Of a DNA stretch of 32,000 nucleotides, positions 18,656-32,000 are shown one piece after another. Source of the DNA: Candidatus Saccharimonadota bacterium. Its GTDB lineage: Bacteria > Patescibacteriota > Saccharimonadia > Saccharimonadales > Saccharimonadaceae. The notes beneath the pieces were generated by a model, which did not search any database, had not been told where the DNA came from, and saw only the letters and a program-made list of their open reading frames with translations. How positions within the stretch are numbered: the first letter of the stretch is position 1; each line of letters starts with the position of its first letter. The position numbers and the translations under genes were made by a program. The DNA lies in the NCBI GenBank assembly GCA_023898645.1, contig CP060232.1:570001-602000 (forward strand), read 5' to 3'.

Positions 18656-19750
18656 ATGACAAAATCGGTTATTTTAACAGGCCTCCGTGCCAACAACAAC
18701 CTTACTATTGGTAACTACTTCGGCGCTATGTTGCCCATTATTGAAATGGCTAAGAGCCATGCCGGCGAATATCAAATAAACATGTTTATACCAGACCTCC
18801 ATAGCTTTACGACACCTATCAATCACGACGATTTGCAAAATCAAATCATCCACAACGCACGACTCTTTGCTGCCGCAGGCTTACCGCTTGATAGCAACGA
18901 CATTCTCATTTACCGTCAAAGCTACGTACCTGCGCATAGTGAACTGACGTGGATTTTGGATTGCTTTACCGGATTTGGCGAAATGAGACGAATGACCCAG
19001 TTCAAAGATAAATCGAGCCAGCTATCTCAAGACGCTACACTGTCAGCTAGCGAAGAGCATAGATACAAAACTCAAGGTGAGTATTCAAACAGCACTTCCG
19101 TTGGCCTCTTCAACTACCCCGTTCTCATGGCCTGCGACATCCTCCTTTATGGCGCCAAATACGTGCCTGTCGGCGACGATCAGACTCAGCATCTGGAATT
19201 TACCCGCGACATAGCAGGGCGCATGAACAATAAGTTCGGCGATCTGTTCGAGGTGCCGTACGAAGTCAGCAAACAGCATGAATTCTTTAACAAAGGCCAA
19301 GGGCTTCGCATCATGGACCTTGTAGATCCAACTAAAAAAATGAGTAAGTCTGACGACATCGGCAAGGGTGTCATATTTCTGACAGATGACCCAGAAGCCG
19401 CAGCCAAAAAGGTGATGTCTGCAACTACCGACGACAAAGCTAGCGTCAACTACAATCCGGTCGAGCAGCCCGGTATCAGCAACCTATTGCAAATCCTCGC
19501 TCTTCTACGTAGCAAGCCGCTCGACGAAGTGGAGTCTGAATTTAAAGGTCAATCTAGTTATGGTGATTTTAAACGAGTCGTTGCTGACGAAGTGTCACAA
19601 TTCCTGACAGCTTTTCAAACGAAGCTAGCCGATGTAGATGACGGCGCCATAGCCGCTGCATTTGAGCAATCCGAAAAAACTGCAAACGAACAGGCGAATG
19701 CAACGCTACTCCGCGTACAGCAAGCGGTCGGACTGCGACCAAGGAACTAA
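18656..19750 (+). CDS. trpS: Tryptophan--tRNA ligase
   Basis: Class I signature variant LTIGNYFG; the KMSKS motif (KKMSKSD); VGDDQTQHLEFTRDIA is typical of TrpRS. Confidence 0.93.
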   Translation: MTKSVILTGLRANNNLTIGNYFGAMLPIIEMAKSHAGEYQINMFIPDLHSFTTPINHDDLQNQIIHNARLFAAAGLPLDSNDILIYRQSYVPAHSELTWILDCFTGFGEMRRMTQFKDKSSQLSQDATLSASEEHRYKTQGEYSNSTSVGLFNYPVLMACDILLYGAKYVPVGDDQTQHLEFTRDIAGRMNNKFGDLFEVPYEVSKQHEFFNKGQGLRIMDLVDPTKKMSKSDDIGKGVIFLTDDPEAAAKKVMSATTDDKASVNYNPVEQPGISNLLQILALLRSKPLDEVESEFKGQSSYGDFKRVVADEVSQFLTAFQTKLADVDDGAIAAAFEQSEKTANEQANATLLRVQQAVGLRPRN

Positions 19751-19752
19751 TC

Positions 19753-20577
19753 ATGAGACTCGACGCATACCTAGCTCAGTACTGGCCTGAACATTCTCGC
19801 GCGACGTGGCAAAAATACGTAAAAGCCGGTTACGTAACCGTAAATGGAGAAGTAGAAAAAAGCACAAAACGACTGCTTGACGAAGACGACAAAGTTGAAA
19901 CCAGCGTGCCAGATGCACAAACGCACGACGACCAATCACTTCCGATCATATACCAAGACAAGAATGTCATCGTCATCAACAAGCCTACTGGCATCCTTTC
20001 TCATAGCAAGGGCGTGTTAAACGATGAGTTCACCGTTGCAGGTTTCTTTAAGCGATTTACAAAATATAATGTCGACACTAATCGACCGGGTATCATCCAT
20101 CGACTCGACCGTGACACAAGCGGCGTACTGATTGGCGCGCTTAACGATAAAACCGCGAAACTGCTACAACGACAATTCTCTGATCGCAAGGTAAAAAAGA
20201 CATACATTGCTGTTGTCGATGGCATACCGAAACAATCAGAAGCCCTCATAGACTTACCGATTGGACGAAACCCCAAGCACCCTAGTCAGTTCCGCGTTGA
20301 TCCAAACGGCAAATCAGCGCAGACCGCTTACCGTATATTGGCTTCGAGCAAGAAGTACAGCCTCGTTGAGCTTCAGCCTCATACTGGTCGCACACATCAA
20401 TTACGCGTTCACATGGCATACATCGGAACGCCAATTCATGGCGACAAGGTCTACGGCAAACAAGCAGACAGACTTTATCTTCACGCCGCCAAACTAGAAA
20501 TCACCATACCCGAAGGTGAACGTATGCTATTTGCGGCAGATGTGCCACCTGAATTCGCTTCCATGGAAATGGCGTAA
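19753..20577 (+). CDS. rluD: RluA/RluD-family 23S rRNA pseudouridine synthase with N-terminal S4 domain
   Basis: HRLDRDTSGVLI catalytic motif; GRTHQLRVH; S4-like N-terminus. Confidence 0.88.
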   Translation: MRLDAYLAQYWPEHSRATWQKYVKAGYVTVNGEVEKSTKRLLDEDDKVETSVPDAQTHDDQSLPIIYQDKNVIVINKPTGILSHSKGVLNDEFTVAGFFKRFTKYNVDTNRPGIIHRLDRDTSGVLIGALNDKTAKLLQRQFSDRKVKKTYIAVVDGIPKQSEALIDLPIGRNPKHPSQFRVDPNGKSAQTAYRILASSKKYSLVELQPHTGRTHQLRVHMAYIGTPIHGDKVYGKQADRLYLHAAKLEITIPEGERMLFAADVPPEFASMEMA

Positions 20578-21425
20578 TGCTCGATGATTTATTGCTTCAT
20601 CCGCGGACACGCCAACTCGCCGACAGGCTTGCAATCAATCTGCCACAAGGCTTGATCATTGACGGGCCGGTTGGTAGTGGCGTTGCTTCTGTAGCGAAAG
20701 CACTTGCAAAGCACCTAGGCTCACCAGAATTGACATTATCTCCAAAAAAGAAGGTGAGGGGAGAGTTTGTTGTCGATGCCGACGAAGGCAGCGTCATCAT
20801 AGATGACGTACGACTGCTCTATCAACAAACGCGCACTAAACAGCCAGGGCGACACGTTTATGTAATAGACACCGGTAATAAGTCGATGACGGTTTCAGCG
20901 CAAAATGCCTTTTTAAAACTTCTCGAGGAGCCTCGTAACGGCCTGCACTTCATCATAGCCACACACCAGTTCGATCAACTACTACCGACTATCGTATCTC
21001 GTTGTCAGCGACTTTCGCTGCTAGCTATCACCGATGAACAAACGGGTGCCCTCATAAATGACTTAGCAATAGAAGACGCCACCAAGCAAACGCGCCTAGC
21101 ATTCGTTGGGCGCGGTCGCCCAGCGCTCATTAAGCGCCTAGCTGCCGACAGCACCTCGTATGACGCAAGGGTAAAGATCATGAGCGACGCCAAAACAATG
21201 CTCGGCAGCGACGTGTACGAGAAACTGAAGATTATTAACACTTATCGCGACAGTCGCTCCGACGCACTGACATTACTTGACGACATGAATCACCAGTTGC
21301 AAATCATCATCCGTAGCCAACCTGACCAACGTATAGCCAAAGATATCGACAAACATCTCGACACGCGCAGACGCATAGCTACAGGTGGCAACATTCGTTT
21401 GCAGCTTTCAACAGACGTATTATAA
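20577..21425 (+). CDS. holB: DNA polymerase III subunit delta-prime
   Basis: Degenerate P-loop GPVGSGVAS, AQNAFLKLLEEP and TIVSRCQRL motifs. TAATG overlap with rluD. Confidence 0.85.
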   Translation: MLDDLLLHPRTRQLADRLAINLPQGLIIDGPVGSGVASVAKALAKHLGSPELTLSPKKKVRGEFVVDADEGSVIIDDVRLLYQQTRTKQPGRHVYVIDTGNKSMTVSAQNAFLKLLEEPRNGLHFIIATHQFDQLLPTIVSRCQRLSLLAITDEQTGALINDLAIEDATKQTRLAFVGRGRPALIKRLAADSTSYDARVKIMSDAKTMLGSDVYEKLKIINTYRDSRSDALTLLDDMNHQLQIIIRSQPDQRIAKDIDKHLDTRRRIATGGNIRLQLSTDVL

Positions 21426-21499
21426 GCGCATAAATTGCGGCTGAAACACCGTAATCACTCCGTATTGAGAACTACTTCTCAACACACATGACTCAATTG

Positions 21500-21508
21500 T
21501 GTTATAAT
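21500..21508 (+). promoter_or_regulatory. Extended -10 TGtTATAAT, 9 nt before ATG 21518 (near-leaderless)
   Basis: Read from the sequence. Confidence 0.45.
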
Positions 21509-21517
21509 TAGAAGTGG

Positions 21518-22171
21518 ATGTTAGGACTTATTGTTGTAGCGATACTAGGTGGGATGATGATTTATTATCGTGGCCTGCCAGCAAACCCAGCACTTGATTT
21601 GCCGGCTAAATTATCTGGGCGCTTGGATAAATTGTGGGAAATTGCCCAGCAATCGCTTCGAGACCGTAAGTACCTACGTGCCGAAAAGGCACTTCTGACC
21701 ATTTTGCGTGTCGATGAGCGCAACGCAACTGCGTATAACCGCCTCGGTATACTGTACGCCAAGCAACAGGAGTACAAAGACGCAATCGAATGCTTTGAAA
21801 TTGCTCAATCGCTTGAGCCAAGCGCTTCGAGTCTTCACAATGTAGGCCTGATTTACTATGAAACCGGCAATTACGCAAAGGCTGCGCTAGCTTTTGAACA
21901 GGCTCTCGAGATTGAAGGAGACCTGTCAACTCGACATATAGCCTACGCCAAGGTACAAGAAAAACTCGGGAACGACAAAAAAATGATTGAATCACTCGAG
22001 CGAGCAGTCGAAATAGACCCAATTCCACAGACACTCAACATCTTGGCCGACGCCTACGAGCGCATCGGTGAACAGGATCTTTCATTAAGATTACGTGAAA
22101 AAGCAGCACGTATGATCTTACCTCCGGGCAAGGCAAAACGAGTTAGCCAGCCGCGTAAAGTGGTGATGTAA
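21518..22171 (+). CDS. Membrane-anchored TPR-repeat protein
   Basis: N-terminal TM segment LGLIVVAILGGMMIYY. Repeated 34-aa TPR-like units follow (AYNRLGILYAKQQEYKDAIECFEIAQSLEP, etc.). Confidence 0.8.
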   Translation: MLGLIVVAILGGMMIYYRGLPANPALDLPAKLSGRLDKLWEIAQQSLRDRKYLRAEKALLTILRVDERNATAYNRLGILYAKQQEYKDAIECFEIAQSLEPSASSLHNVGLIYYETGNYAKAALAFEQALEIEGDLSTRHIAYAKVQEKLGNDKKMIESLERAVEIDPIPQTLNILADAYERIGEQDLSLRLREKAARMILPPGKAKRVSQPRKVVM

Positions 22172-22184
22172 CCGCTTCTACATC

Positions 22185-22213
22185 TTGAACATTTTTCACC
22201 CCTGATGTACACT
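22185..22213 (+). promoter_or_regulatory. Candidate tRNA-cluster promoter TTGAAC-17 nt-TACACT
   Basis: -35 at 22185-90 and -10 at 22208-13. Confidence 0.35.
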
Positions 22214-22280
22214 TATATTTGTACTTTAGGAAACTAAAGTAATATTTAATGCCTTTAAGCATTAAAGTACACCTTTCAGC

Positions 22281-22301
22281 TATGCCGCTTTAGCTCAGTT
22301 G
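22281..22301 (+). pseudogene. Truncated duplicate of the tRNA-Thr(TGT) 5' end (3-nt flank plus first 18 nt)
   Basis: The 21-nt TATGCCGCTTTAGCTCAGTTG is identical to 22383-22403. No anticodon arm or T arm follows. Confidence 0.85.
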
Positions 22302-22337
22302 CTGTCTGAGCCGAATGGCGAGTAATGTAATGAAGCA

Positions 22338-22353
22338 TTGCTCTAACCAACTG
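22338..22353. repeat. 16-nt inverted copy of the tRNA-Thr(TGT) D-arm
   Basis: TTGCTCTAACCAACTG is the exact reverse complement of 22398-22413. Confidence 0.9.
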
Positions 22354-22385
22354 GCATACTGCAAGTACCTCACATCTATATTTAT

Positions 22386-22462
22386 GCCGCTTTAGCTCAG
22401 TTGGTTAGAGCAACTGTTTTGTAAACAGTAGGTCCTCGGTTCGAGTCCGAGAAGCGGCTCCA
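22386..22462 (+). tRNA. tRNA-Thr (anticodon TGT), CCA encoded
   Basis: Manual cloverleaf: acceptor GCCGCTT/AAGCGGC, D arm GCTC/GAGC, anticodon stem ACTGT/ACAGT with loop TTTGTAA, T arm CTCGG-TTCGAGT-CCGAG. Confidence 0.93.
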
Positions 22463-22515
22463 CGGCGAAATAATGATTCATCGTTATTTCACATTGGAGT
22501 TACATGTTGTTTACC

Positions 22516-22551
22516 AAATTAACAAACCAAGATTTATCTGTTTGTTAATTT
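22516..22551. repeat. Perfect 12-bp-stem hairpin AAATTAACAAAC-(12 nt)-GTTTGTTAATTT between tRNA-Thr and tRNA-Tyr
   Basis: Read from the sequence. Role unknown; it could be a processing or termination signal. Confidence 0.8.
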
Positions 22552-22626
22552 GAGAGGAGGAACAACGAAGAGACGAAGCTTTTGCCACTTGCGGCGAAAC
22601 GAGGTCTCGAAAGTGAGTTCCGACGA

Positions 22627-22711
22627 GCTGGAATCGTGTAGTGGCAATCACAGGAGACTGTAAATCTCCCGCCTTTCGGCTTCGTAGGTTCGAGTCCTAC
22701 TTCCAGCACCA
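22627..22711 (+). tRNA. tRNA-Tyr (anticodon GTA), long variable arm, CCA encoded
   Basis: Acceptor GCTGGAA/TTCCAGC, anticodon stem GGAGA/TCTCC with loop CTGTAAA, variable arm CGCCTTTCGGCTTC, T arm GTAGG-TTCGAGT-CCTAC. Confidence 0.93.
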
Positions 22712-22718
22712 AGTAAAC

Positions 22719-22744
22719 GGCCTACCCGAAGTGGTGGGCCTTTT
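22719..22744 (+). terminator. Intrinsic terminator after tRNA-Tyr
   Basis: GGCCTACC-cgaagt-GGTGGGCC (8 bp, one G.U pair) followed by TTTT. Confidence 0.75.
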
Positions 22745-22764
22745 ACTTTGTAGGCGGTGTTTGT

Positions 22765-22812
22765 CTCGAACCTACGAACCTTTTCGCTCCTGCGAAAAGT
22801 CGTAAGGTTCGG
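22765..22812. repeat. Inverted 14-nt copy of the tRNA-Tyr T-arm region, embedded in a long imperfect hairpin
   Basis: CTCGAACCTACGAA (22765-78) is the reverse complement of 22681-94. CGAACC/GGTTCG, TACG/CGTA and CTTTTCGC/GCGAAAAG pair across a tcct loop (about 19 bp). Confidence 0.85.
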
Positions 22813-22902
22813 CGTAGTGAGTGAAGCGAGGAAAAGCACGAAGTATTTTTCCGAGCGAATGAACGGAGGAGCAATCTTCGATTGCGATGTCCTACCTCCC
22901 GC

Positions 22903-22953
22903 AATGAAAAATGGGCTACGCAGATAAGAATACTTATTCTTTCTGCATAGCCC
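22903..22953 (-). terminator. Strong intrinsic terminator of the 80-aa gene
   Basis: A hairpin of about 17 bp at 22913-22953 begins 6 nt after the stop codon. ATTTTTCATT follows on the minus strand. Confidence 0.8.
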
Positions 22954-22959
22954 TTGACG

Positions 22960-23202
22960 TCAGTAAAATATAAACGCGGCCACGGCCATAACACCCAACG
23001 AGCCCGTCGTTACATCCTTGAGGGTTTCGAAATCGACGCGACAAACCACCATCGATACAAGCGTAGCTCCGATTGCCAGCCACATTGCCGCGACGATAAT
23101 CGCCCTTGTGGATAGCCTCGATACGAACTTTATGTTGTTTGATGTGCCGCTGGAGCAACAAGCGCCAGAATTACATGTTTTACAACTGTTACCGTCACAC
23201 AT
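22960..23202 (-). CDS. Small Cys-rich membrane protein, 80 aa (MCDGNSCKTCNSGACCSSGTS... plus two predicted TM helices)
   Basis: The ORF-track 22960..23235 was trimmed to ATG 23202, which has AGGAG 5 nt upstream. It has its own promoter and terminator. TM candidates are AIIVAAMWLAIGATLVSMVV and GSLGVMAVAAFIFY. Confidence 0.7.
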   Translation of the reverse strand: MCDGNSCKTCNSGACCSSGTSNNIKFVSRLSTRAIIVAAMWLAIGATLVSMVVCRVDFETLKDVTTGSLGVMAVAAFIFY

Positions 23203-23234
23203 AACCACTCCTAACGTAGTGATACGACTTAACA

Positions 23235-23262
23235 ACTATAACATGTATTTATATATTTACAA
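23235..23262 (-). promoter_or_regulatory. Promoter of the 80-aa gene: TTGTAA-16 nt-TGtTATAGT
   Basis: On the minus strand, -35 at 23262-23257, TG at 23243-42 and -10 at 23240-23235. Confidence 0.6.
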
Positions 23263-23272
23263 CTATTTAGTA

Positions 23273-23301
23273 TTGGAGGAAGTCTCCCTGTCTGGTACAA
23301 T
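23273..23301 (+). promoter_or_regulatory. Promoter upstream of tRNA-Thr(GGT): TTGGAG-17 nt-TGgTACAAT
   Basis: -35 at 23273-78, TG at 23293-94 and -10 at 23296-23301. This leaves a structured leader of about 130 nt before the tRNA. Confidence 0.5.
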
Positions 23302-23440
23302 TTACCGAGATGCATGCCTCGGTATGTAGTTAGTCCGAGCTCGCGAAGCACGAGAGTAAATCGAGCCTTAGGGCGAAGGACAAAGTTTTCGAATTTATTT
23401 CGACAACGAATGGAGGGGCAAGCCCCTCCTGAAAACGCAT

Positions 23441-23516
23441 GCCGCGATAGCTCAGTTGGTAGAGCGCATCCATGGTAAGGATGAGGTCTCGGGTTCAAAT
23501 CCCGATCGCGGCTCCA
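23441..23516 (+). tRNA. tRNA-Thr (anticodon GGT), CCA encoded
   Basis: Acceptor GCCGCGA/TCGCGGC, anticodon stem CATCC/GGATG with loop ATGGTAA, T arm CTCGG-GTTCAAAT-CCCGA. Confidence 0.93.
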
Positions 23517-23553
23517 TACGAAATTAAATTAACGGGTGGTATTGAGGGTTAGT

Positions 23554-24498
23554 ATGACAAAGAACGTAGAATCAACCAACATACTCCGAGAGCTTGAGCC
23601 CGTTGTCGAGTCAGAACTTAACAGACACGAAAAAATGGTAAAAAATTGGTATCCGCACGACTACGTTCCATGGAGCGAAGGTAAAAATTTCGCATATCTA
23701 GGCGGGGAAGACTGGGAGCCAACACAATCACGACTTGGAAAAGCCGCCAGGGCAGCCATGTACGTAAATCTACTGACTGAAGACAATCTGCCTTCTTATC
23801 ATCGAGTGATCTCCGCTACTTTCGGACGCGATAGCGCATGGGGTACATGGGTAGACCGCTGGACGGCTGAAGAAAACAAACACGGCATAGCTATGCGTGA
23901 CTATCTGACAGTAACAAGAGCAATCAATCCCGTAGAGCTGGAGCAGGCACGCATGCAGCAGATGACGTCAGGATATCAGAGTGAAAAATCTCCACTAGAC
24001 GCTGTTGCCTACGTCACCATGCAGGAGCTCGCCACTCGTATCGCTCATCGCAACACGGGCATAGAGAGCAGAAAAGACGGCGACGAGCTGGCAGAAAAGC
24101 TACTTGCTCGTATTGCACTCGACGAAAACCTGCACATGCTGTTTTATCGCAATATCGGTACAGCCGCATTCGAAGTAGAGCCTAACGAGATGATGAAATC
24201 TGTCACAGAGGAAATTCTTGGGTTTCAGATGCCTGGCGCTGCAAGCATTCCTGATTTTTGGGCAAATGCCGCCGTTATCGCTGATGCCGAGATCTATGAC
24301 CTCAACATCCATGCCAATAGTATCGTCAACCCGACTCTAAAACACTGGAAAGTCTGGGACCGCACAGACCTAAGTGGCGAAGGCGCTGAAGCTAGAGACA
24401 AACTCGGTAGGTACATGCTAAAACTTGAATCAAAAGCGCAAGAACTAGTAGAGCTTCGCGAGGAGCAAAAAGCTGCCCAGAACACTAGTCAAAACTAA
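23554..24498 (+). CDS. Soluble acyl-ACP desaturase family protein (di-iron, DesA/stearoyl-ACP desaturase type)
   Basis: LLTEDNLPSYH, WTAEENKHG, QELATRIAHRNT and ALDENLHMLFY match the four-helix di-iron ligand motifs (EENxH / DExxH). ATG 23554 with GAGGG 5 nt upstream is preferred to the ORF-track GTG 23536. Confidence 0.88.
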   Translation: MTKNVESTNILRELEPVVESELNRHEKMVKNWYPHDYVPWSEGKNFAYLGGEDWEPTQSRLGKAARAAMYVNLLTEDNLPSYHRVISATFGRDSAWGTWVDRWTAEENKHGIAMRDYLTVTRAINPVELEQARMQQMTSGYQSEKSPLDAVAYVTMQELATRIAHRNTGIESRKDGDELAEKLLARIALDENLHMLFYRNIGTAAFEVEPNEMMKSVTEEILGFQMPGAASIPDFWANAAVIADAEIYDLNIHANSIVNPTLKHWKVWDRTDLSGEGAEARDKLGRYMLKLESKAQELVELREEQKAAQNTSQN

Positions 24499-24547
24499 AT
24501 TTTTGTGCTAGAGTAGATAAAGTTGTAAATATAAATGTGAGTTTTGT

Positions 24548-24754
24548 ATGCCTAAAAAAGCAACCAAGCGAAAATTAGTAGGACTTGTCAGTGACCTCAG
24601 TGGGCACCGTACTTACTATACGACCAAAAACACCCAGAATACTACAGAAAAAATCAGCCTGAAGAAGTACGATCCAATCGCACGTAAACACGCTACTTAC
24701 ACTGAGACTAAAAAGAGTCTTGGTCGTAACGAAGTCAAAGCACGCAAGTCTTAA
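24548..24754 (+). CDS. rpmG: 50S ribosomal protein bL33, Cys-free form with short terminal extensions
   Basis: LVGLVSDLSGHRTYYTTKNTQNTTEKISLKKYDPIARKHATYTETK matches the L33 core. No Cys residues are present. Confidence 0.9.
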   Translation: MPKKATKRKLVGLVSDLSGHRTYYTTKNTQNTTEKISLKKYDPIARKHATYTETKKSLGRNEVKARKS

Positions 24755-24773
24755 TTTCGTTTTCTACACTTTT

Positions 24774-24801
24774 AAAATCCGGCCCTTATCGGCCGGATTT
24801 T
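24774..24801. terminator. Bidirectional terminator between convergent rpmG and the GH15 gene
   Basis: AAAATCCGGCC-cttatc-GGCCGGATTTT, with an A-run and a T-run flanking a 7-bp GC stem. It overlaps the GH15 stop codon. Confidence 0.8.
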
Positions 24802-26744
24802 GTGTCATTTTTAATGGTATCGAGCAATGTCGATACATATTCTGCGTGACTCCAGTTTAACGGCGCGGGCGCCACTAGTGAGTGGTCTACGGGGCTAACT
24901 TGTTCAGACAGTACGCCGGTCTGCATCATAACTCCACCAATCCAATCAAGTATACCCTTAACGCGTTCATCTTGTTCTGTTTCTATAAAATATTGCGCCA
25001 TCCAAAGCGTTGTAATGAACCACCAATTACCGTGAGTATTGGGGTCAATTCTATGGTACTGATCGTGTTCATATCGCGGATAAGCGTCTAGATTCGGGTC
25101 CGAGCGGAGCTCTTGGTCAATCGTTTCAGCCACGGCCTTCAGTTCCGGTGAGTTAACGCCAAATAGTCCAAACATATATGCGCCAAAGAAACTACTCATA
25201 TCAATCGTACTATCATAGCGCACCTGACCGTCGACTACATTTATACCCTTATAAAATGATTTTCTTTCGGCATTGTATAGGTATTTACGGGCACTAATTT
25301 GTATGTCGTCGGCTACGGCCCTCCAAGCCACAGCGCTGCCGTTGTCATCTTTCTTTTCGGCTAGATCTGCTGCGGCGTGCAAGGCGGCATATACAATGGA
25401 CGTCGTATACGTGTTCGTCTGAAAAACTTCTTCCCATAAATCATAGCTCGGCTTCGGTAATCCGGTCGTTTCGTCTATAAACTCAGCCATCCAGTTAGCC
25501 ATCGGCTTAATCATAGAGTCATAAAAGTCATGTAGCATACGGTTGTCACCGGTCGCCTGATAAAACTGCGCAAGTGCAAATACAACAACTGCAGTCTCGT
25601 CTTCCTGTATGGGCGGAGCTACAACGCCATCATCATGAACATACGAGTGCCAGCTAGACCCCATGCCACCATCGGCTCGGAATTTATGCATCAGGTAACC
25701 TGTCGGGTGCATCACGCGCCGACAAAACTCAAAAAACCGATACGGCTCCTCTTTGTAGCCCATTCGTATAAGCGGCCACAGCACAAGCGCGCCATCGCGA
25801 GGCCAGCAATACGCATAGCTGTCGCGACCATAATTAAGCATAGATGTGTCGGTACTGGCGATAACGGCTCCACGCTTATCAATCTGCGACTTGATAATCA
25901 TAACGCTGTGCAAAAATGAATCATGATAGGCGGGGTCGATTTTTGCAGCCGATTCCACGGCTGGCTGCAGCCACTTGTGCCACCACTCTGCAGTTAAGTG
26001 AAGTCGTTTAGACAAACCTTCGCCTCGAATCTGTTTATCTATATATAGCGCTTCTCTCATAGACGACCCGGCGGTAATCCAATAATGCACCCGCTCTGAA
26101 CTTTTGGCGTCGACTTCTAAACGGAATCGGATAATCGAATCGACCCGACCATGCTCAACGTTGCTACCGGACAATTCACCGTCTTCGGCATCGCGATACG
26201 TACCCTCGTGGCCTTCTATGCCAAAAAGGCCGACGCTATGTTGATCAAAAGGTTCGTCATTATGTGTACCTGAAATAATGAACGCTCTTCGACCGCGATA
26301 ATGCAACAAAGCTTCGCTGTCTGGCAGATATTGCGCTGTATCGGTATTGCTTCGCGAGTCGTCGATTGCAAACGCCTGATGCATAAATAAGCGAATTTCT
26401 CGTGGATGATCGGCCAGGTTAACAACATGGATGTTTCGCATGAAAGCGCTCATATGAGCATCGACACAGTCATCAATCTCTAGTAGCACCTGTAAAGATT
26501 CATTTTTTGCGACCGTATGGCCAATGAGTGCACGTATAGGGTAACGGAACGAAAACGTCCATTCGCCTTCATTATCAAGCCAACTAAGCTTGCCATCGAT
26601 CCATACACCAACCCTATGACGAGTATGCGGACCCTGTGCGTGATTAGTAAGTCCCACGTACGGATAAAAAAGATCGTGTACTAAACCGAAGTTATTAAGG
26701 CCGACGTGCAACTCACCGTTCGAAAGTACTATAGGTCTAAGCAT
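24786..26744 (-). CDS. Glycoside hydrolase family 15 (glucoamylase/glucodextranase-like)
   Basis: 652 aa with the motifs YAYCWPRDGA and SYDLWEEV and an (alpha/alpha)6-type C-terminal half. GGAG lies 6 nt before the ATG. Confidence 0.88.
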   Translation of the reverse strand: MLRPIVLSNGELHVGLNNFGLVHDLFYPYVGLTNHAQGPHTRHRVGVWIDGKLSWLDNEGEWTFSFRYPIRALIGHTVAKNESLQVLLEIDDCVDAHMSAFMRNIHVVNLADHPREIRLFMHQAFAIDDSRSNTDTAQYLPDSEALLHYRGRRAFIISGTHNDEPFDQHSVGLFGIEGHEGTYRDAEDGELSGSNVEHGRVDSIIRFRLEVDAKSSERVHYWITAGSSMREALYIDKQIRGEGLSKRLHLTAEWWHKWLQPAVESAAKIDPAYHDSFLHSVMIIKSQIDKRGAVIASTDTSMLNYGRDSYAYCWPRDGALVLWPLIRMGYKEEPYRFFEFCRRVMHPTGYLMHKFRADGGMGSSWHSYVHDDGVVAPPIQEDETAVVVFALAQFYQATGDNRMLHDFYDSMIKPMANWMAEFIDETTGLPKPSYDLWEEVFQTNTYTTSIVYAALHAAADLAEKKDDNGSAVAWRAVADDIQISARKYLYNAERKSFYKGINVVDGQVRYDSTIDMSSFFGAYMFGLFGVNSPELKAVAETIDQELRSDPNLDAYPRYEHDQYHRIDPNTHGNWWFITTLWMAQYFIETEQDERVKGILDWIGGVMMQTGVLSEQVSPVDHSLVAPAPLNWSHAEYVSTLLDTIKNDTKSGR

Positions 26745-26774
26745 TTATACTCCGAAGTTTCCCACCCGCATCGG

Positions 26775-28025
26775 TCATATGGCAACGTTCTCCTCAGAAG
26801 GTTTGGGTGTATTGAGCCCGCCAAGACTATGGTGCAACATCAATCGTAAACGAACATCTCGGATAGCATTCATGTACGACAAAAAGGCGTCATAAGGGGA
26901 GTCGTAAGGGCTAAAGTATTTGTGCACGTCACCATCATGCTGCCATTTAGTGGCCATGTAATAAAAGTGGTCGGAACTTTGCAACAATCGCCAGTCACGT
27001 ATTAACTCTACATCGTTACTTCTCAAAACGTCATTTTGTAACGCATACGCATATTTAAGCGACTCTTTCTGTAAATCATTGCCTGTCCAGGCCGACAAAT
27101 CACGCTCACTGTCTGCCCATGTGACAGTCTGTGGCATCGAAAGCTCACCGGCAGGCTCAAGCTCCCTAGCGGCACCGGTTACTGTCTGGAAAGAATTTCC
27201 ACTTTCAGAAAGCCACTTGGCTACAAATGCCTCGAAAAAGGTAAATATTCCCGTGTCGGCCCACTGATGTTCGCCAAACGTCTCAAAGTCCATAAATAGA
27301 TTAACAAGCGGCCCTTCGGAATTTGATGCAACCCAACTCGCATATTTATCTACGCTAAGTGGCCATTCGTTCCACGACTGGTCACCAAATCGAAATGCAA
27401 GGTCATCGCTCAATTGGTAATTTTTCAGCAACAAGCTGATGTTTTCTGTACCAGCTGGTCGATAAACATAGTTCGGGCTACGCCACTCTAGTACCGGATC
27501 CCAACCTTCTGCCAAGACAACTTCATAGCCAGCTTCGTCGGCCCATTCCGCTACTTCGTCGTTGTATGCAAGCTCCGTGTTACGGAATGCCGTTGGAACA
27601 ACACCAAACACCTCTTTGATCTTCTGACGGTGTTGCTCTACCTGACTCACGAACTCCTGCTTGTTATAGAAAAACGCCAAGCTGTGATAATACGTTTCGG
27701 CTACAATCTCTACACGGCCAGTTGCGACAAGCTCATTAAATGCGTCCAATACGTCTGGCGCCCACGCCTCGGCCTGTTCTATAAAGTCACCAGTAATACT
27801 AATCGAACATTTAAAATCAGGGTGTCGATCTAGCAGCGTGCGTAGCAACGCCGTCATTGGCCTGTAGGACTTGTCGGCAACCTTGTGAAATATCTTTTCG
27901 TTGTTGAGCTTGCTGTCATCTTTAATGTCAAAATAATCATGTCGTTCACCGATATCGAACACACTGTATGGCCTAACCCGATACGGCTGATGTACATGCA
28001 GGTACAGTGCGATTGCTTTACTCAT
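26775..28025 (-). CDS. Glycoside hydrolase family 57 (alpha-amylase / alpha-glucan-active enzyme)
   Basis: LYLHVHQPYR, GRVEIVAETYYH, FRNTELAY and LFMDFETFGEHQW match GH57 conserved regions. Start ATG 28025 overlaps the upstream stop (ATGA). The ORF-track start 28067 lies inside the upstream gene. Confidence 0.85.
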   Translation of the reverse strand: MSKAIALYLHVHQPYRVRPYSVFDIGERHDYFDIKDDSKLNNEKIFHKVADKSYRPMTALLRTLLDRHPDFKCSISITGDFIEQAEAWAPDVLDAFNELVATGRVEIVAETYYHSLAFFYNKQEFVSQVEQHRQKIKEVFGVVPTAFRNTELAYNDEVAEWADEAGYEVVLAEGWDPVLEWRSPNYVYRPAGTENISLLLKNYQLSDDLAFRFGDQSWNEWPLSVDKYASWVASNSEGPLVNLFMDFETFGEHQWADTGIFTFFEAFVAKWLSESGNSFQTVTGAARELEPAGELSMPQTVTWADSERDLSAWTGNDLQKESLKYAYALQNDVLRSNDVELIRDWRLLQSSDHFYYMATKWQHDGDVHKYFSPYDSPYDAFLSYMNAIRDVRLRLMLHHSLGGLNTPKPSEENVAI

Positions 28026-29242
28026 ACAACTGCACCATCCTTCAAACGACCATAAAGCGATGCGCATTTTTCAGCCACATCATGCCATGATATTCGAGCA
28101 TACTCTTCTTTAACGTTACGACGAAGCGTCGTAGCAAGGCTAGGAGACAATGCAATATTGACCAGTTGGTCAGCGAGTCGGTCAGTGTCCCAATAGTCAT
28201 AGCGCAAGATATTTTCAAGAACTTCGCCAACACCAGATTGTTTGCTTATGATAAGCGCACTGTCGTGGTGCGCAGCTTCAAGGGCAGTAAGGCCAAACGG
28301 CTCACTAACCGAGCTCATGACGAATACATCAGAGACCGAGTAGATGTCGCGCCACTGCTTGCCCCGTACAAAGCCAGTAAAGTACACTTTGTCGGCAATA
28401 CCCATGCTTGCCGCCAGACTGATAAGCTCGTCACGTTGTTCGCCGTCGCCAGCAAGCAAAAAAACAAACTTGTCATACTTTTCACAGGCACGTGCAGCGC
28501 CACGCAAAAAGTGCGTCAAACCTTTTTGCACCGTGAATCGAGTCAGTAGCGCCACCACCGTATAGCCTTCGTACCGAAGCGCCTCAAAGTAACGGTAGTC
28601 GCGCATGTCGTACTCATAGGGCTCAAAGCTATCGACGTCGATTGCGTTGTGAATCACCTCTACGCGTTCGGCTGGTATGCCATATTTCTCAACGATAATA
28701 GCCTTCGTAATGTTACTCACTGCAATAATCCGATCCGCCATATCAAGCGCCTGCTGCTCAATCTCGTGTACGATAGGATTTCCGTAGCTTTCGCCAGAAC
28801 GATCAAACTCGGTAGCGTGTACGTGAACAATGAGGGGAGCGCCAGTCAACTCCTTAGCGCGCACACCCGCCTCCATCGTCAACCAATCATGAGCGTGTAT
28901 GACATCAGGCTGTACTTTTTTAATAAGACCTTCGACAAACGTAATGTAATGCTTTTGAACAGCGCGCATGGTCGACAGATCACCAGCATCAATCTCAGCC
29001 ATATCCTTTTCGGTGACAAATTCACTATCGTAACTACCCATGTGCACGCGACTTTCAGGGTCTAAACTAGTTGCACCATGTATGTTCATAAAATCAATAT
29101 CAGGATGCTCAGCCGAATAGGGGAGCACAAAATCAATCGAAGCACCCTTAATAGCAAGTGCTTTAGACATATGGTAACATGCGACCCCAAGCCCACCACT
29201 GTTGTGCGGCGGCAGCTCCCAGCCGAGCATTAGTATTCTCAT
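28022..29242 (-). CDS. Glycogen-synthase-like glycosyltransferase (GT4/GT5, GT-B fold)
   Basis: MRILMLGWELPPHNSGGLGVA at the N-terminus. E-x7-E motif SEPFGLTALEAA. Confidence 0.85.
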   Translation of the reverse strand: MRILMLGWELPPHNSGGLGVACYHMSKALAIKGASIDFVLPYSAEHPDIDFMNIHGATSLDPESRVHMGSYDSEFVTEKDMAEIDAGDLSTMRAVQKHYITFVEGLIKKVQPDVIHAHDWLTMEAGVRAKELTGAPLIVHVHATEFDRSGESYGNPIVHEIEQQALDMADRIIAVSNITKAIIVEKYGIPAERVEVIHNAIDVDSFEPYEYDMRDYRYFEALRYEGYTVVALLTRFTVQKGLTHFLRGAARACEKYDKFVFLLAGDGEQRDELISLAASMGIADKVYFTGFVRGKQWRDIYSVSDVFVMSSVSEPFGLTALEAAHHDSALIISKQSGVGEVLENILRYDYWDTDRLADQLVNIALSPSLATTLRRNVKEEYARISWHDVAEKCASLYGRLKDGAVV

Positions 29243-29299
29243 TCTTTGCCCCTATGATTGGTTCTACCCAACCGGTGCTCCTCGTTTTTATTTATTAGC

Positions 29300-29326
29300 C
29301 TAGCGTTATTATAAATTATACGCTAG
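29300..29326. promoter_or_regulatory. Inverted repeat CTAGCGT-N13-ACGCTAG in the divergent intergenic region; encloses a minus-strand TATAAT
   Basis: Perfect 7-bp arms. The AT-rich 13-nt spacer reads TATAAT on the minus strand. This looks like a candidate operator of the glucan operon. Confidence 0.5.
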
Positions 29327-29363
29327 CACTTTGACAACAGTTTTTACAGATAAAATATATCAG

Positions 29364-29392
29364 TTGCGTACTCCTGCAATTTGTTCCATAAT
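29364..29392 (+). promoter_or_regulatory. Candidate mscS-like promoter TTGCGT-17 nt-CATAAT, 6 nt before ATG 29399 (leaderless-type)
   Basis: Read from the sequence. A perfect TTGACA at 29331-36 is an alternative -35, but it has no well-spaced -10. Confidence 0.4.
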
Positions 29393-29398
29393 AGGAGG

Positions 29399-30352
29399 AT
29401 GTTTCAAAATGACTCCATAGGTTCCGCCATCGACGAAGTCGTCAGATTTGTATTACAGCCGAATGATTACCGAGCCGTCTTGATTCTCATCATTTCAGTG
29501 CTTTTTGCGTACTGGCTCAGCAAGTTTTTGGCAAAGGGAATCATATTCGTAGCCCAAAAGGTCGCTATAAGAGGCGACACAGAGACTCGTGAAGACAAGT
29601 TTGTGATGTATCGCCAAGTAGAAACCTACCTCAGTATTGCCGTGGCTGTCGTGCGAACTCTCGTAGTGGCGGTGGTCGCCTACATCACTTGGCGTATCCT
29701 CACGCCGCAAGGTAGTGAAAACCTCGGCGGATCAGGCGCGGCGGCAATCGGTGCTAGTACCATCTTTATCGTTTTCGCAGGTGCTACCGTCGGCCTACTA
29801 CTACGCGACATCACAGCCGGAGCCACTATGATCATCGAAAAATGGTTCACGATAGGAGACTTTATTAAAGTCGAGCCATTCATGGATGTCAGCGGTGTAG
29901 TCGAACGTATGAACCTACGCTCTACTAAGCTACGTAGCCTTAGTGGCGAAGTTATCTGGATTCACAACCAACAGATTCAAGGAGTTCACGTCACCCCGCG
30001 CGGAGTACGTACAACCGCCGTCGATATATTTGTTACAGATATCGAAAAGAGTGAATATGCGATTCAACAGGTTGTCAAAGCCATGCCAACTGGCGCCACC
30101 ATGCTCGCTCGGCCGCTCCGTATGACCAAACCAGAGCAGTGGGGTGAAGGAGTCTGGCGAATCACTGTCATAGGTGAAACCACTCCTGGTCGCGAATGGT
30201 TAATGGAAAAGTATTTCGTCAACGCCATTACAAAGCTAGACGAAGAGGCCAAAAAAGTCGACAAGTTACTGGCGCTTGAACCAATCGCATATTACGCCGA
30301 CCCGGTCGCCGACAAACGCTTCAAACGCGCCGTCCGCGTCAAGAGCACGTAA
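29399..30352 (+). CDS. Mechanosensitive ion channel, MscS family
   Basis: Three N-terminal TM segments, then GDFIKV...GVVERMNLRSTKLRSLSGEVIWIHNQQI, the MscS beta-domain signature. ATG 29399 is preferred to the ORF-track TTG 29381, but the start remains uncertain. Confidence 0.85.
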   Translation: MFQNDSIGSAIDEVVRFVLQPNDYRAVLILIISVLFAYWLSKFLAKGIIFVAQKVAIRGDTETREDKFVMYRQVETYLSIAVAVVRTLVVAVVAYITWRILTPQGSENLGGSGAAAIGASTIFIVFAGATVGLLLRDITAGATMIIEKWFTIGDFIKVEPFMDVSGVVERMNLRSTKLRSLSGEVIWIHNQQIQGVHVTPRGVRTTAVDIFVTDIEKSEYAIQQVVKAMPTGATMLARPLRMTKPEQWGEGVWRITVIGETTPGREWLMEKYFVNAITKLDEEAKKVDKLLALEPIAYYADPVADKRFKRAVRVKST

Positions 30353-30363
30353 CCCCATATCTG

Positions 30364-30372
30364 TGGTACAAT
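30364..30372 (+). promoter_or_regulatory. Extended -10 TGgTACAAT upstream of tRNA-Trp
   Basis: This is the same 9-mer as at 23293-23301. It lies 12 nt before the tRNA 5' end. Confidence 0.5.
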
Positions 30373-30383
30373 ATTTTGTGTAA

Positions 30384-30458
30384 AGGGGCATAGTACAACG
30401 GCTAGTATAGCGGTCTCCAAAACCGTAGATTGAGGTTCGATTCCTCATGCCCCTGCCA
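30384..30458 (+). tRNA. tRNA-Trp (anticodon CCA), CCA tail encoded
   Basis: Acceptor AGGGGCA/TGCCCCT, anticodon loop CTCCAAA, T arm GAGG-TTCGATT-CCTC, discriminator G followed by CCA. Confidence 0.93.
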
Positions 30459-32000
30459 TAATGGATAAAGCGCATTTTCGGCGCTTTTTTCGTTATTTTG
30501 ACCCCCGTTATTTTCACTATTTGTAAAAGTTCTATCATTTGATTTTCGTGTTCCTAATAATTCGCGTGTTTTCGAACTATATTTAGCGATCAGTTCAGCA
30601 CGATCCTTCAAGCTAACAGATACAGAATCGTTCTTAAACATGATATTTTCGAACAGTTCTATCAAAATCTGGCGTTTCTCATCATCGTCCTTTTCGTCGT
30701 AGTATTTAGCTGCTCGTTGCGATAGTTCTAGCATGTATATGCCGCGTCGTTTCCGTTCAGTTACAGTGCTATCAAACGACGCCATGGCAAGCTCTAGGGT
30801 TTCAATCTCGTTCATGAATGACTCGTGCTTAGCTTCGTATCGCTCCTGTGTGATGACGCCTGCAAGCTTGTCGTCGTATAGGGCTTCGTCCATAGACTTA
30901 ATACGCTCTATGCGCGCCTTCGTGTTCTGTTCGACTTCCGCGCGGTTATCTGCGGCCTTCTCGACATCAGATTGCATGCTCTCAACGACCCACTCTAGAA
31001 TACTCTGAGAAGGGCATAAAAGGCGCTCAAGCTCCTGCTTTACAGCCTCTTGCACTACATCTTCGCGGATATATTTATACTTACGATTCTTGCATCGCTC
31101 ATCACGACGCTGGCAAGCTCCATAATAACGGCCTTTCTGCAGTTGCCATGAAACCTGACTGCCACAAGTCGCACAGGTAACAACTCCTTTTAAAGATACG
31201 TTGTGCCGTACCTGTTTTTTAGGTCGCTTACCGTGCAGCTTATCTTGTACAGCCTCCCACACTTCGCGCCTTACTATTGGTGTTTGAGCACCAGGGTATT
31301 CCTGTCCATTAAAACGATTAATCCCTATGTAAAAGGGATTTAGAAGTATTTTATGTACGTGACTCTCTGGTATCGGTCTACCGTTGCGTGTTGTTAGTCC
31401 AATCTCTCGCATCTTTGCAGCAACAGATTCAATTGATTGGCCGGGTTTTAGGTATAGCTCAAACATCGCCCTGACTGAGTTCATTGTGGTCGGGTTTGGA
31501 ACATGTATACGTTTACCGTGATCAGTTACGGTCATATATCCGACAGGAGGTACGGCCGGTAGCCATCCTTGAGCTAGCTTTTCCGCCCAGCCCTTCATAG
31601 CCTCTTCTCGTAAGTTGTCAGTGTATTTCTTGGCAACAGCTAAGTGGATATTCCACATAAACTTAACGTCAGACTTCGACTCCTTGTGTAGCTGGATGTT
31701 CTCTTTGACGAGATGGAGCATCCGATCAGCGTCTTTACTGAGCCAATCATCAATAGCAACGGCATCCTTCATATTGCGTGTGAGCCTGTCGGTCTTTTCG
31801 ACAGCCAGATGATAGATAGCGTTCTTATTCATGTAGGTTAGAAGTTCCTTGAATATCCTGCGACTCTGTTCTTTTGATGCTGTCTCGGCTATTTTAAATA
31901 TCTTATCGACTATAAAGCCCTTATTGGCACAATATCCTGTGAGGAGCTTTACTTGAGAGTCGAGGGAATACCCCTCGTCCTCCTGCGACTTACTCGATAC
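30402..32000 (-). CDS. Large serine recombinase (phage-integrase type); N-terminus beyond window end
   Basis: The frame stays open upstream of the ORF-track ATG 31832: ...VSSKSQEDEGYSLDSQ (catalytic Ser motif) ...VEKTDRLTRN (resolvase domain). A recombinase domain, a zinc ribbon (CATCGSQ...CQRRDERC) and a coiled coil follow. The last 19 codons are antisense to tRNA-Trp. Confidence 0.88.
   Translation of the reverse strand, partial: VSSKSQEDEGYSLDSQVKLLTGYCANKGFIVDKIFKIAETASKEQSRRIFKELLTYMNKNAIYHLAVEKTDRLTRNMKDAVAIDDWLSKDADRMLHLVKENIQLHKESKSDVKFMWNIHLAVAKKYTDNLREEAMKGWAEKLAQGWLPAVPPVGYMTVTDHGKRIHVPNPTTMNSVRAMFELYLKPGQSIESVAAKMREIGLTTRNGRPIPESHVHKILLNPFYIGINRFNGQEYPGAQTPIVRREVWEAVQDKLHGKRPKKQVRHNVSLKGVVTCATCGSQVSWQLQKGRYYGACQRRDERCKNRKYKYIREDVVQEAVKQELERLLCPSQSILEWVVESMQSDVEKAADNRAEVEQNTKARIERIKSMDEALYDDKLAGVITQERYEAKHESFMNEIETLELAMASFDSTVTERKRRGIYMLELSQRAAKYYDEKDDDEKRQILIELFENIMFKNDSVSVSLKDRAELIAKYSSKTRELLGTRKSNDRTFTNSENNGGQNNEKSAENALYPLWQGHEESNLNLRFWRPLY
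30459..32000. mobile_element. Left end of a putative integrated element inserted next to or into the 3' end of tRNA-Trp
   Basis: The recombinase gene abuts the tRNA and points toward it. The other boundary is outside the window. Confidence 0.5.
30468..30490 (+). terminator. Intrinsic terminator after tRNA-Trp
   Basis: AAGCGC-attttcg-GCGCTT followed by TTTT. It lies inside the recombinase ORF on the opposite strand. Confidence 0.7.

Follow-up and report, generated by a model that had tools for sequence, protein, structure and literature searches.

In a Saccharibacteria genome, does the spacer that separates two tRNA genes carry a stand-alone gene for a small membrane protein, or is the open reading frame (ORF) observed there incidental? 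The spacer lies within a stretch of 32,000 nucleotides from Candidatus Saccharimonadota bacterium (assembly GCA_023898645.1, contig CP060232.1, positions 570,001 to 602,000), called the window below. Between the genes for tRNA-Tyr and tRNA-Thr(GGT), a candidate promoter, a Shine-Dalgarno (SD) box, an ORF of 80 codons and an intrinsic terminator follow each other on the minus strand, forming a compact cassette. Comparison with related genomes indicates that this cassette is a lineage-specific insertion. It is plausible, though unproven, that the ORF is a stand-alone gene, young or of foreign origin, and that its product is a small membrane protein with a tail rich in thiols at the N-terminus, which would lie in the cytoplasm and may bind a soft metal; we put the chances of this explanation at about even. 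That a real protein is encoded at all, counting also the toxin variant considered in the Discussion, is somewhat favoured.

Structure of the cassette

An earlier interpretation of the same DNA, the sequence-only reading, had described a self-contained minus-strand unit with full signals, and all the signals are present at their places (Table 1). The candidate promoter (23262..23235) matches the consensus in 9 of 12 positions and has a 16-nt spacer with terminal TG, which makes it an extended -10 promoter. The SD-ATG pair is situated about 26 nt downstream of the predicted transcription start, and the frame fills the stretch from there to at most 6 nt before the best terminator of the window. 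The hairpin of this terminator, described earlier as having 17 bp, in fact consists of 18 pairs with one bulge and starts 6 nt past the stop codon. The folding energy of the terminator region (-29 kcal/mol for an 81-nt fold, z = -5.0) was equalled by none of 200 shuffles. Among the 17 sites on both strands of the window where a hairpin is followed by a T-run, it is the strongest (-26.9 kcal/mol over 48 nt), and the other strong sites are located at recognisable ends of transcription units.

The cassette was found in five further contigs from independent samples (three in Logan and two in ENA), with 99.8-100% identity. Samples with this strain are SRR28385526, SRR28385528, SRR12358676, ERZ27248697 and ERZ28659597. 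One of the ENA contigs, L002, spans window positions 22038-24491 and thus covers both cassette junctions, running across tRNA-Thr(GGT) into the adjacent desaturase gene. Five independent copies, one of which spans both junctions, exclude an assembly artefact.

Several alternative interpretations of the same segment were considered and rejected. Within the ORF, the transcript shows no more structure than its shuffles do (z +0.34), which argues against a structured non-coding RNA, and no Rfam family was found in this region. An upstream TTG start at 23235, yielding a product of 91 aa, falls within the -10 hexamer and has no SD box. A longer ORF of 103 aa lies on the plus strand opposite the 80-codon ORF (23018-23329); as an alternative gene, it has a TTG start without an SD box, crosses the AT-rich promoter region and has no family match. 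A transposon or a miniature inverted-repeat transposable element was also considered, and neither terminal inverted repeats nor target duplications were observed at the cassette edges.

The beginning of the coding region (23165-23195, minus strand; AGTTGTAAA-ACATGTAAT, the source of Cys7 and Cys10) echoes the promoter at 23235-23267 of the same strand (AGTTGTAAA...ACATGTTAT; repeats D5 and I5). The echo could be due to chance, or it could hint that the start of the coding region originated through duplication of promoter-like sequence.

Table 1. Positions of the cassette elements and of the surrounding features in the window
Feature	Position	Strand	Basis or comment
-35-like hexamer TTGTAA	23257..23262	-	promoter scan and direct reading
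Extended -10 TGtTATAGT (TG 23243-23242, TATAGT 23240-23235)	23235..23243	-	promoter scan and reading
Shine-Dalgarno box AGGAG (23212-23208)	23208..23212	-	5 nt before ATG at 23202-23200
ORF of 80 codons and TGA stop (22962-22960)	22960..23202	-	sequence reading and ORF list
Intrinsic terminator: hairpin 22953-22913 and AUUUUUCAUU (22912-22903)	22903..22953	-	fold and T-run scan
Lineage-specific inserted segment (cassette)	22906..23272		no DNA or protein match at any related locus
Promoter of tRNA-Thr(GGT), TTGGAG-17-(TGg)TACAAT, divergent, back-to-back with the cassette promoter	23273..23301	+	alignment with relatives
tRNA-Thr(TGT)	22386-22462	+	ARAGORN, Rfam
tRNA-Tyr	22627-22711	+	ARAGORN, Rfam
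Terminator hairpin of the tRNA-Thr(TGT)/tRNA-Tyr unit, directly after tRNA-Tyr	22719-22740	+	hairpin and T-run scan; compensatory changes in relatives
tRNA-Thr(GGT)	23441-23516	+	ARAGORN, Rfam
TPR protein gene (flank)	21518-22171		Pfam annotation
Acyl-ACP desaturase gene	23554-24498	+	Pfam annotation

The predicted protein

The product of the ORF is MCDGNSCKTCNSGACCSSGTSNNIKFVSRLSTRAIIVAAMWLAIGATLVSMVVCRVDFETLKDVTTGSLGVMAVAAFIFY. Both this sequence and the spacing of the N-terminal cysteines had been given exactly by the sequence-only reading. Cysteines occupy positions 2, 7, 10, 15, 16 and 54, so that the spacing in the tail is C2-x4-C7-x2-C10-x4-C15C16. The N-terminal tail (residues 1-23) is rich in Cys, Ser, Gly, Asn and Thr, with five Cys, five Ser and two Thr. 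It is followed by a basic juxtamembrane region with K25, R29 and R33, a transmembrane (TM) segment (residues 34-54), an acidic loop (55-63) and a hydrophobic C-terminus (from residue 64 or 69 to 80). Of the two hydrophobic helices proposed earlier, the former stands: residues 34-54, preceded by 33 polar residues, form the sole canonical TM segment (21 residues; Kyte-Doolittle values up to 2.43 in a 19-residue window). The latter does not, being a stretch of 12-17 residues at the extreme C-terminus, up to the stop codon, that passes in an 11-residue window only. In an AlphaFold2 model made without an alignment, residues 25-53 and 59-79 are helical and the tail is disordered; the confidence of the model is low (pLDDT 62, pTM 0.30).

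As K25, R29 and R33 precede the TM segment and the loop that follows it is net-acidic, the positive-inside rule would place the Cys-rich tail in the cytoplasm. In that case the thiols would be in their reduced form and might chelate a soft metal. Metal binding by the tail is purely an inference.

Comparison with related genomes

Syntenic loci were fetched using the desaturase and the TPR protein, and the spacers between tRNA-Tyr and tRNA-Thr(GGT) were compared. All close relatives of these two proteins are annotated as Saccharibacteria or Saccharimonadia. One NCBI protein from a metagenome-assembled genome, 100% identical to the desaturase, is labelled Candidatus Nomurabacteria; given the annotation of all close relatives, this label is probably wrong. 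A metagenome scan with the desaturase as a query produced only relatives with at most 57% identity.

In the window the spacer has 729 nt and contains the cassette. It is empty at the same junction in L169/L170 (74 nt; desaturase identity 81%), L177-L179 (92 nt; TPR protein identity 90%), L172 (127 nt; TPR protein identity 94%, from the same sample as contig L165 with a 95% identical desaturase) and L005 (246 nt; desaturase identity 74%). Other cargo is found in L007 (650 nt; desaturase identity 64%), where an unrelated ORF of 150 aa is on the plus strand, in L173 (892 nt; TPR protein identity 93%), which has an ORF of 204 aa with a phosphoribosyltransferase-like motif, and in L174 (at least 1,880 nt; TPR protein identity 93%), which has two ORFs. 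When the window spacer was compared with all loci by blastn and tblastn, matches were limited to the tRNAs, a conserved element following tRNA-Tyr and the leader of tRNA-Thr(GGT), both of which are described below. The left edge of the inserted segment is the end of the conserved element, and the right edge is the plus-strand promoter of tRNA-Thr(GGT). According to these alignments, the cassette was inserted in this lineage only, and the insertion has the same limits as the promoter-to-terminator unit. In this respect the sequence-only reading was right, as it was in stating that the unit is antisense to the tRNAs and separates tRNA-Tyr from tRNA-Thr(GGT).

Its placement inside a tRNA operon has to be revised. 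The spacers of the short-spacer relatives consist of a terminator hairpin followed by the promoter TTGnnn-17-TGnTA(C/T)AAT, with the TTG and TGnTA(C/T)AAT columns invariant in the window, L172, L177 and L169. Since the relatives have a terminator and then a conserved promoter, and tRNA-Tyr is followed by a terminator in the window as well (Table 1), the cassette is situated at the boundary of two tRNA transcription units. As the spacers compared show, this boundary is hypervariable.

The ORFs in the same tRNA cluster of close relatives (L173, 4200-4919 and 5465-6079; L174, 1355-2074, 2603-3277 and 3432-4097; L007, 4354-4806) are unrelated. One cargo protein (204-224 aa) carries the phosphoribosyltransferase-like motif VIGEDIVTTLGS; no Pfam matches were found for the cargo ORFs. 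The interval between the TPR protein and desaturase genes is a hypervariable hotspot. A microhomology, CAATGAAAA(A)TGG, which also occurs after tRNA-Tyr in L172, was considered as a recombination junction and was not used; MAFFT aligns the terminator of L172 with the first hairpin of the window.

Evidence for and against a coding region

What is non-random in the cassette is the conjunction of the ORF, the SD box and the terminator, rather than any single element. An SD box of five nucleotides at the correct spacing precedes 2.4% of all ATG codons and 16 of 35 presumed genes, which corresponds to a likelihood ratio of roughly 19. The joint frequency of the cassette elements is about 1e-5 (0.15 × 0.024 × ~0.004), if independence is assumed. 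The ORF was called as a gene by the gene callers of two independent resources, Logan and ENA.

A considerable number of observations weigh against a functional gene. When the 729-nt tRNA spacer is shuffled with its dinucleotides preserved, 15% of the shuffles contain a closed ORF of at least 80 codons with an ATG start, so that the length alone is unremarkable (P≈0.15). Promoter-like sites are not enriched over the shuffles (4 against 2.2±1.5 expected), and the promoter match alone is at background. Of 7,100 small ORFs collected mechanically from 1.3 Mb of fetched sequence, about 0.1% likewise have at least five cysteines within 20 residues together with a hydrophobic segment. The full codon log-likelihood of -0.17 per codon is lower than in all 154 real 80-codon windows from this genome region and falls into the top 8% of off-frame windows, and the GC content is atypical, being lower at the first than at the second codon position. 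A synonymous codon score, from which the amino acid composition has been removed, is -0.082. This is 3.3 standard deviations below the expectation under host usage (0.111±0.058; the expectation under uniform usage is -0.132±0.078), close to the off-frame mean (-0.094) and lower than in 96% of real 80-codon windows. The antisense ORF of 103 aa scores no worse on codon usage. Synonymous codon usage gives no support to coding and resembles that of non-coding frames. The only single-nucleotide polymorphism within the cassette copies is non-synonymous (F26S). The product is on record in Logan and ENA only, but NCBI also has the desaturase encoded next to it in this genome; thus the NCBI annotation probably did not call the ORF. 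The cassette is also missing from the closest non-identical relative, L172, with its short spacer and flanking proteins 94-95% identical.

The searches for homologs point in the same direction. The sequence-only reading had named a lack of homologs with conserved Cys spacing in related genomes as grounds for its refutation, and indeed no relatives of the product were found beyond near-identical copies from the same strain in all family, protein and contig collections searched. A word search over 5.8 billion clusters returned the product itself only, and an exhaustive HMMER search of 1.84 billion representatives returned the product and three artefacts, namely tandem-repeat proteins whose scores are summed over 5-19 stretches. 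Neither the scans of genome, metagenome and viral contigs confirmed by tblastn, nor tblastn against phage and plasmid records, yielded relatives, and the product has no match in PHROGs, PADLOC or the PDB sequences. The only Pfam family found by hmmscan at E<=10 was DUF7631 (PF24634; residues 5-23, E 0.075), with 14 bits against the gathering cutoff of 27, and the NCBIfam scan produced only a weak match to CedA1, restricted to the TM segment. Local analogues, that is, small ORFs with a Cys cluster and a TM segment in the 1.3 Mb of fetched loci, turned out to be off-frame junk only.

The ratio of non-synonymous to synonymous substitution rates could not serve as a guide, the five extra copies being too similar (99.8-100% identity) for any selection test. 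A young or foreign gene would give exactly this mixed coding evidence, and so would a lucky accident.

Similarity to known systems

One published likeness is a family of small proteins associated with feoB, with the motif Cx3-5Cx2-3Cx6-8C (PMC8749426). Its members, like the product of the cassette, are tiny and combine one membrane anchor with a short tail rich in Cys, Gly and Ser, thought to bind iron, and the x4 and x2 spacings of the product fit the motif. However, the tail of the product is N-terminal to the TM segment whereas that of the family is C-terminal, the third spacing is x4/x5 rather than x6-8, the product does not match the hidden Markov model (HMM) of the family, and no FeoB domain was found in the ten flanking ORFs. 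Thus the product is not a member of this family.

The organisation of the cassette resembles that of phage morons, autonomous units of promoter, gene and terminator that are found between conserved genes. The cassette is likewise self-contained, a terminator follows its gene immediately, and only one lineage has it, the corresponding junction of relatives being free of it; morons, too, are often orphans with foreign codon usage. The promoter of the cassette is a candidate (a consensus match with an extended -10, such sites being unenriched over shuffles). On the other hand, the cassette resides in a chromosomal tRNA cluster rather than a prophage, its neighbourhood contains no phage genes, and no PHROG, phage or viral matches were found. 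Type I toxins such as Hok, TisB, Fst and TxpA share with the cassette a small membrane peptide, a compact stand-alone layout in an intergenic region, restriction to a lineage and a possible antisense promoter. The product differs from them in its greater length and its polar Cys-rich head, and the locus has no demonstrable antitoxin RNA or terminator for it.

Metal-handling proteins provide a lead only. The P1B-type metal ATPase ZntA of E. coli has a Cys-rich N-terminal extension with the stretch CCCDGAC, and MerF has about 80 aa and two helices. The N-terminal extensions of P1B-type ATPases, MerF and MerE, and bacterial metallothioneins resemble the product in their geometry, with thiols clustered at the cytoplasmic side of the membrane and a vicinal CC pair among them. 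There is no sequence relationship: the product has no Pfam or NCBIfam match to the MerF, MerE, MerT, MerC, metallothionein and HMA families, and no mer or metal-resistance genes are found nearby. The CC pair of the product is in the soluble tail and not in a TM helix. The CYSTM peptides of eukaryotes are small (under 100 aa) and stress-related and likewise possess both a membrane anchor and a stretch rich in Cys (PMC12853963, PMC11866895). However, they come from eukaryotes and have their cysteines inside the TM module at the C-terminus, and the product has no HMM match to them. The cassette is neither a recognisable system nor demonstrably functional; it is a candidate for a strain-specific, moron-like orphan mini-gene in a hotspot.

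Other features of the locus

The genes within about 8 kb on either side encode TrpRS, a pseudouridine synthase, HolB, the TPR protein, the acyl-ACP desaturase, L33, GH15, GH57, GT4, MscS and a serine recombinase. Pfam annotation of the neighbours in this range (18656 to 31832) revealed no gene for a maturase or a transporter and none related to metals, and the earlier statement that no modification enzyme is nearby holds over the same distance. Elsewhere in the window, the ORF layout suggests a ribosomal-protein gene region.

On its 3' side, tRNA-Tyr is directly followed by a non-coding element, some 190 nt long, that is conserved (window 22712-22905, plus strand; L005 4621-4795; L173 5264-5440; L174 2442-2625). 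It is common to four Saccharibacteria loci with differing downstream cargo and absent in the short-spacer relatives. In the RNAalifold prediction, 17 of the 49 pairs show compensatory changes; the terminator of tRNA-Tyr forms the first helix, and GGAGGAG...CCTACCTCC forms the last. No Rfam family corresponds to this element. It could be a novel structured RNA or a recombination landmark. Immediately after the tRNA-Tyr gene there is also a 46-nt inverted copy (I1; 22681-22778, plus strand) of the 3' half of the gene, with 74% complementarity.

The leader of tRNA-Thr(GGT), about 135 nt from the conserved promoter to the gene (23302-23440, plus strand), is structured (z -3.25), whereas that of the relatives has only about 9-12 nt. 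It is approximately 78% identical to the DNA upstream of the pseudo-tRNA-Thr in L172 (4244-4358) and L174, and the alignments suggest that leaders have been shuffled between tRNA-Thr genes. In the window, a partial pseudo-copy of tRNA-Thr(TGT) is located upstream of the gene (22281-22353, plus strand), its first 21 nt being exact (22281-22301 = 22383-22403). The same region contains a perfect 16-nt inverted copy of the D-arm and anticodon-stem region (22338-22353 vs 22398-22413), and the pseudo-copy is kept in L169 and L172. The spacer between tRNA-Thr(TGT) and tRNA-Tyr (22463-22626, plus strand) is another strain-specific insertion, with 164 nt against 3-47 nt in the relatives, and includes a perfect 13-nt inverted repeat (22515-22527 / 22540-22552).

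The acyl-ACP desaturase is 55-58% identical to homologs from Actinomycetota, e.g. Nonomuraea and Amycolatopsis. As this is the phylum of the known hosts of Saccharibacteria, horizontal transfer is possible. Antisense within the desaturase gene (23872-23939, minus strand) there is a sub-threshold Rfam match to ASdes (33.6 bits, cutoff 40). ASdes is a mycobacterial small RNA antisense to desA1, and the match probably merely reflects conserved coding sequence. Farther away, a large ORF of a serine recombinase with Resolvase, Recombinase and Zn-ribbon domains (30402-31832, minus strand) lies right next to tRNA-Trp (30384-30458, plus strand) and, formally, overlaps it, which suggests an integrative element at that tRNA.

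Discussion

Under the explanation that we prefer, the cassette of roughly 365 bp would be a recent gain by one strain lineage of Saccharibacteria. It would most likely have been acquired through homologous recombination, for which the tRNA genes on either side, being invariant, would have served as arms; natural competence is on record for Saccharibacteria (PMC10633639). The cassette would be transcribed from its own promoter and translated from the SD-ATG, and the strong terminator would stop the transcript ahead of an antisense run into tRNA-Tyr. The product would insert into the membrane via residues 34-54, with the short hydrophobic segment at its C-terminus folding back. The tail would remain in the cytoplasm with its five thiols within 16 residues (C-x4-C-x2-C-x4-CC) reduced, and these could chelate Zn, Cu, Cd or Fe at the inner face of the membrane. 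A bolder version seems unlikely to us: an expressed, very young minimal gene, arisen de novo or shuttled horizontally, would be the founder of a family of small proteins with a membrane-tethered, metallothionein-like thiol tail, swapped between strains across the invariant tRNA genes.

The most serious competitor, which we consider less probable but far from negligible, is that the insert does not encode a protein, being either filler or a small non-coding transcription unit in a tRNA spacer prone to recombination, and that the frame, the AGGAG box and the Cys-rich start are accidental. The ORF length expected from shuffles, the codon usage similar to that of non-coding frames, the longer ORF on the opposite strand, the lack of homologs, the absence from the closest relative and the apparent absence from the NCBI annotation all fit this possibility. 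So do three other non-coding insertions in the tRNA cluster of this strain and the fact that two of the Cys codons fall within AGTTGTAAA and ACATGTAAT, the motifs resembling the promoter sequence. It accounts less well for a start placed just past the predicted transcription start and an end just before the strongest terminator in 32 kb, for a joint frequency as low as 1e-5 (again with independence assumed), for a transcript body without excess structure and for a well-formed TM segment with positive-inside flanks. A misjoin or chimera at conserved tRNA sequences might be suspected from the Logan contigs of this and related strains, which break inside tRNA-Thr(GGT). Its probability is negligible in view of five near-identical contigs from different samples and assemblers, one of which covers both junctions.

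Two further possibilities concern the nature of the peptide. It could be the membrane-damaging toxin of a locus similar to type I toxin-antitoxin systems, silenced by an antisense RNA. A promoter-like site on the plus strand inside the ORF (TTGCCA-16-GATAAT, 10 of 12 matches, 23073-23100) would produce RNA antisense to the SD box and the 5' third of the mRNA, and the compact promoter-SD-small membrane ORF-terminator unit at a variable intergenic site would suit such a locus. Like many type I toxins, the product is an orphan without a family match; selfish cassettes of this kind are typically lineage-specific and intergenic. However, known type I toxins are mostly under 60 aa, and a product of 80 aa with a polar Cys-rich head of 33 residues is longer and less hydrophobic. 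Moreover, no hairpin with a T-run was found on the plus strand between this site and tRNA-Thr(GGT), only a single copy was seen, and PADLOC and PHROGs gave no match. We regard the toxin variant as quite doubtful. A precursor of a ribosomally synthesised and post-translationally modified peptide (RiPP) or bacteriocin, with the Cys/Ser/Thr-rich region as a modified core, is rejected as very improbable. The composition of residues 1-23 recalls the cores of lanthipeptides or ranthipeptides. However, the Cys-rich part begins at residue 2, leaving no possibility of a leader, and the membrane anchor comes after it and not before. LanB/C/M, radical-SAM, YcaO and transporter genes are absent from the Pfam-annotated neighbourhood described above, and no precursor family of Pfam or NCBIfam matches.

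If the peptide is not made, the tRNA cluster is still a hotspot gathering diverse insertions, and at such a hotspot automatic gene callers report spurious peptides of striking composition. If it is made, the cassette would be a clean natural example of the gain of an orphan gene in a genome-reduced Saccharibacterium: a minimal unit between invariant tRNA genes whose presence or absence can be dated among strains with 94-95% identical flanking proteins. Small membrane proteins with thiol tails are poorly charted, and one exposed on the cytoplasmic face could serve in metal buffering or sensing. Should the founder-gene version of our preferred explanation be true, the locus would provide a tractable example of how genomes of the Candidate Phyla Radiation, here that of an ultrasmall epibiotic bacterium, gain orphan membrane proteins.

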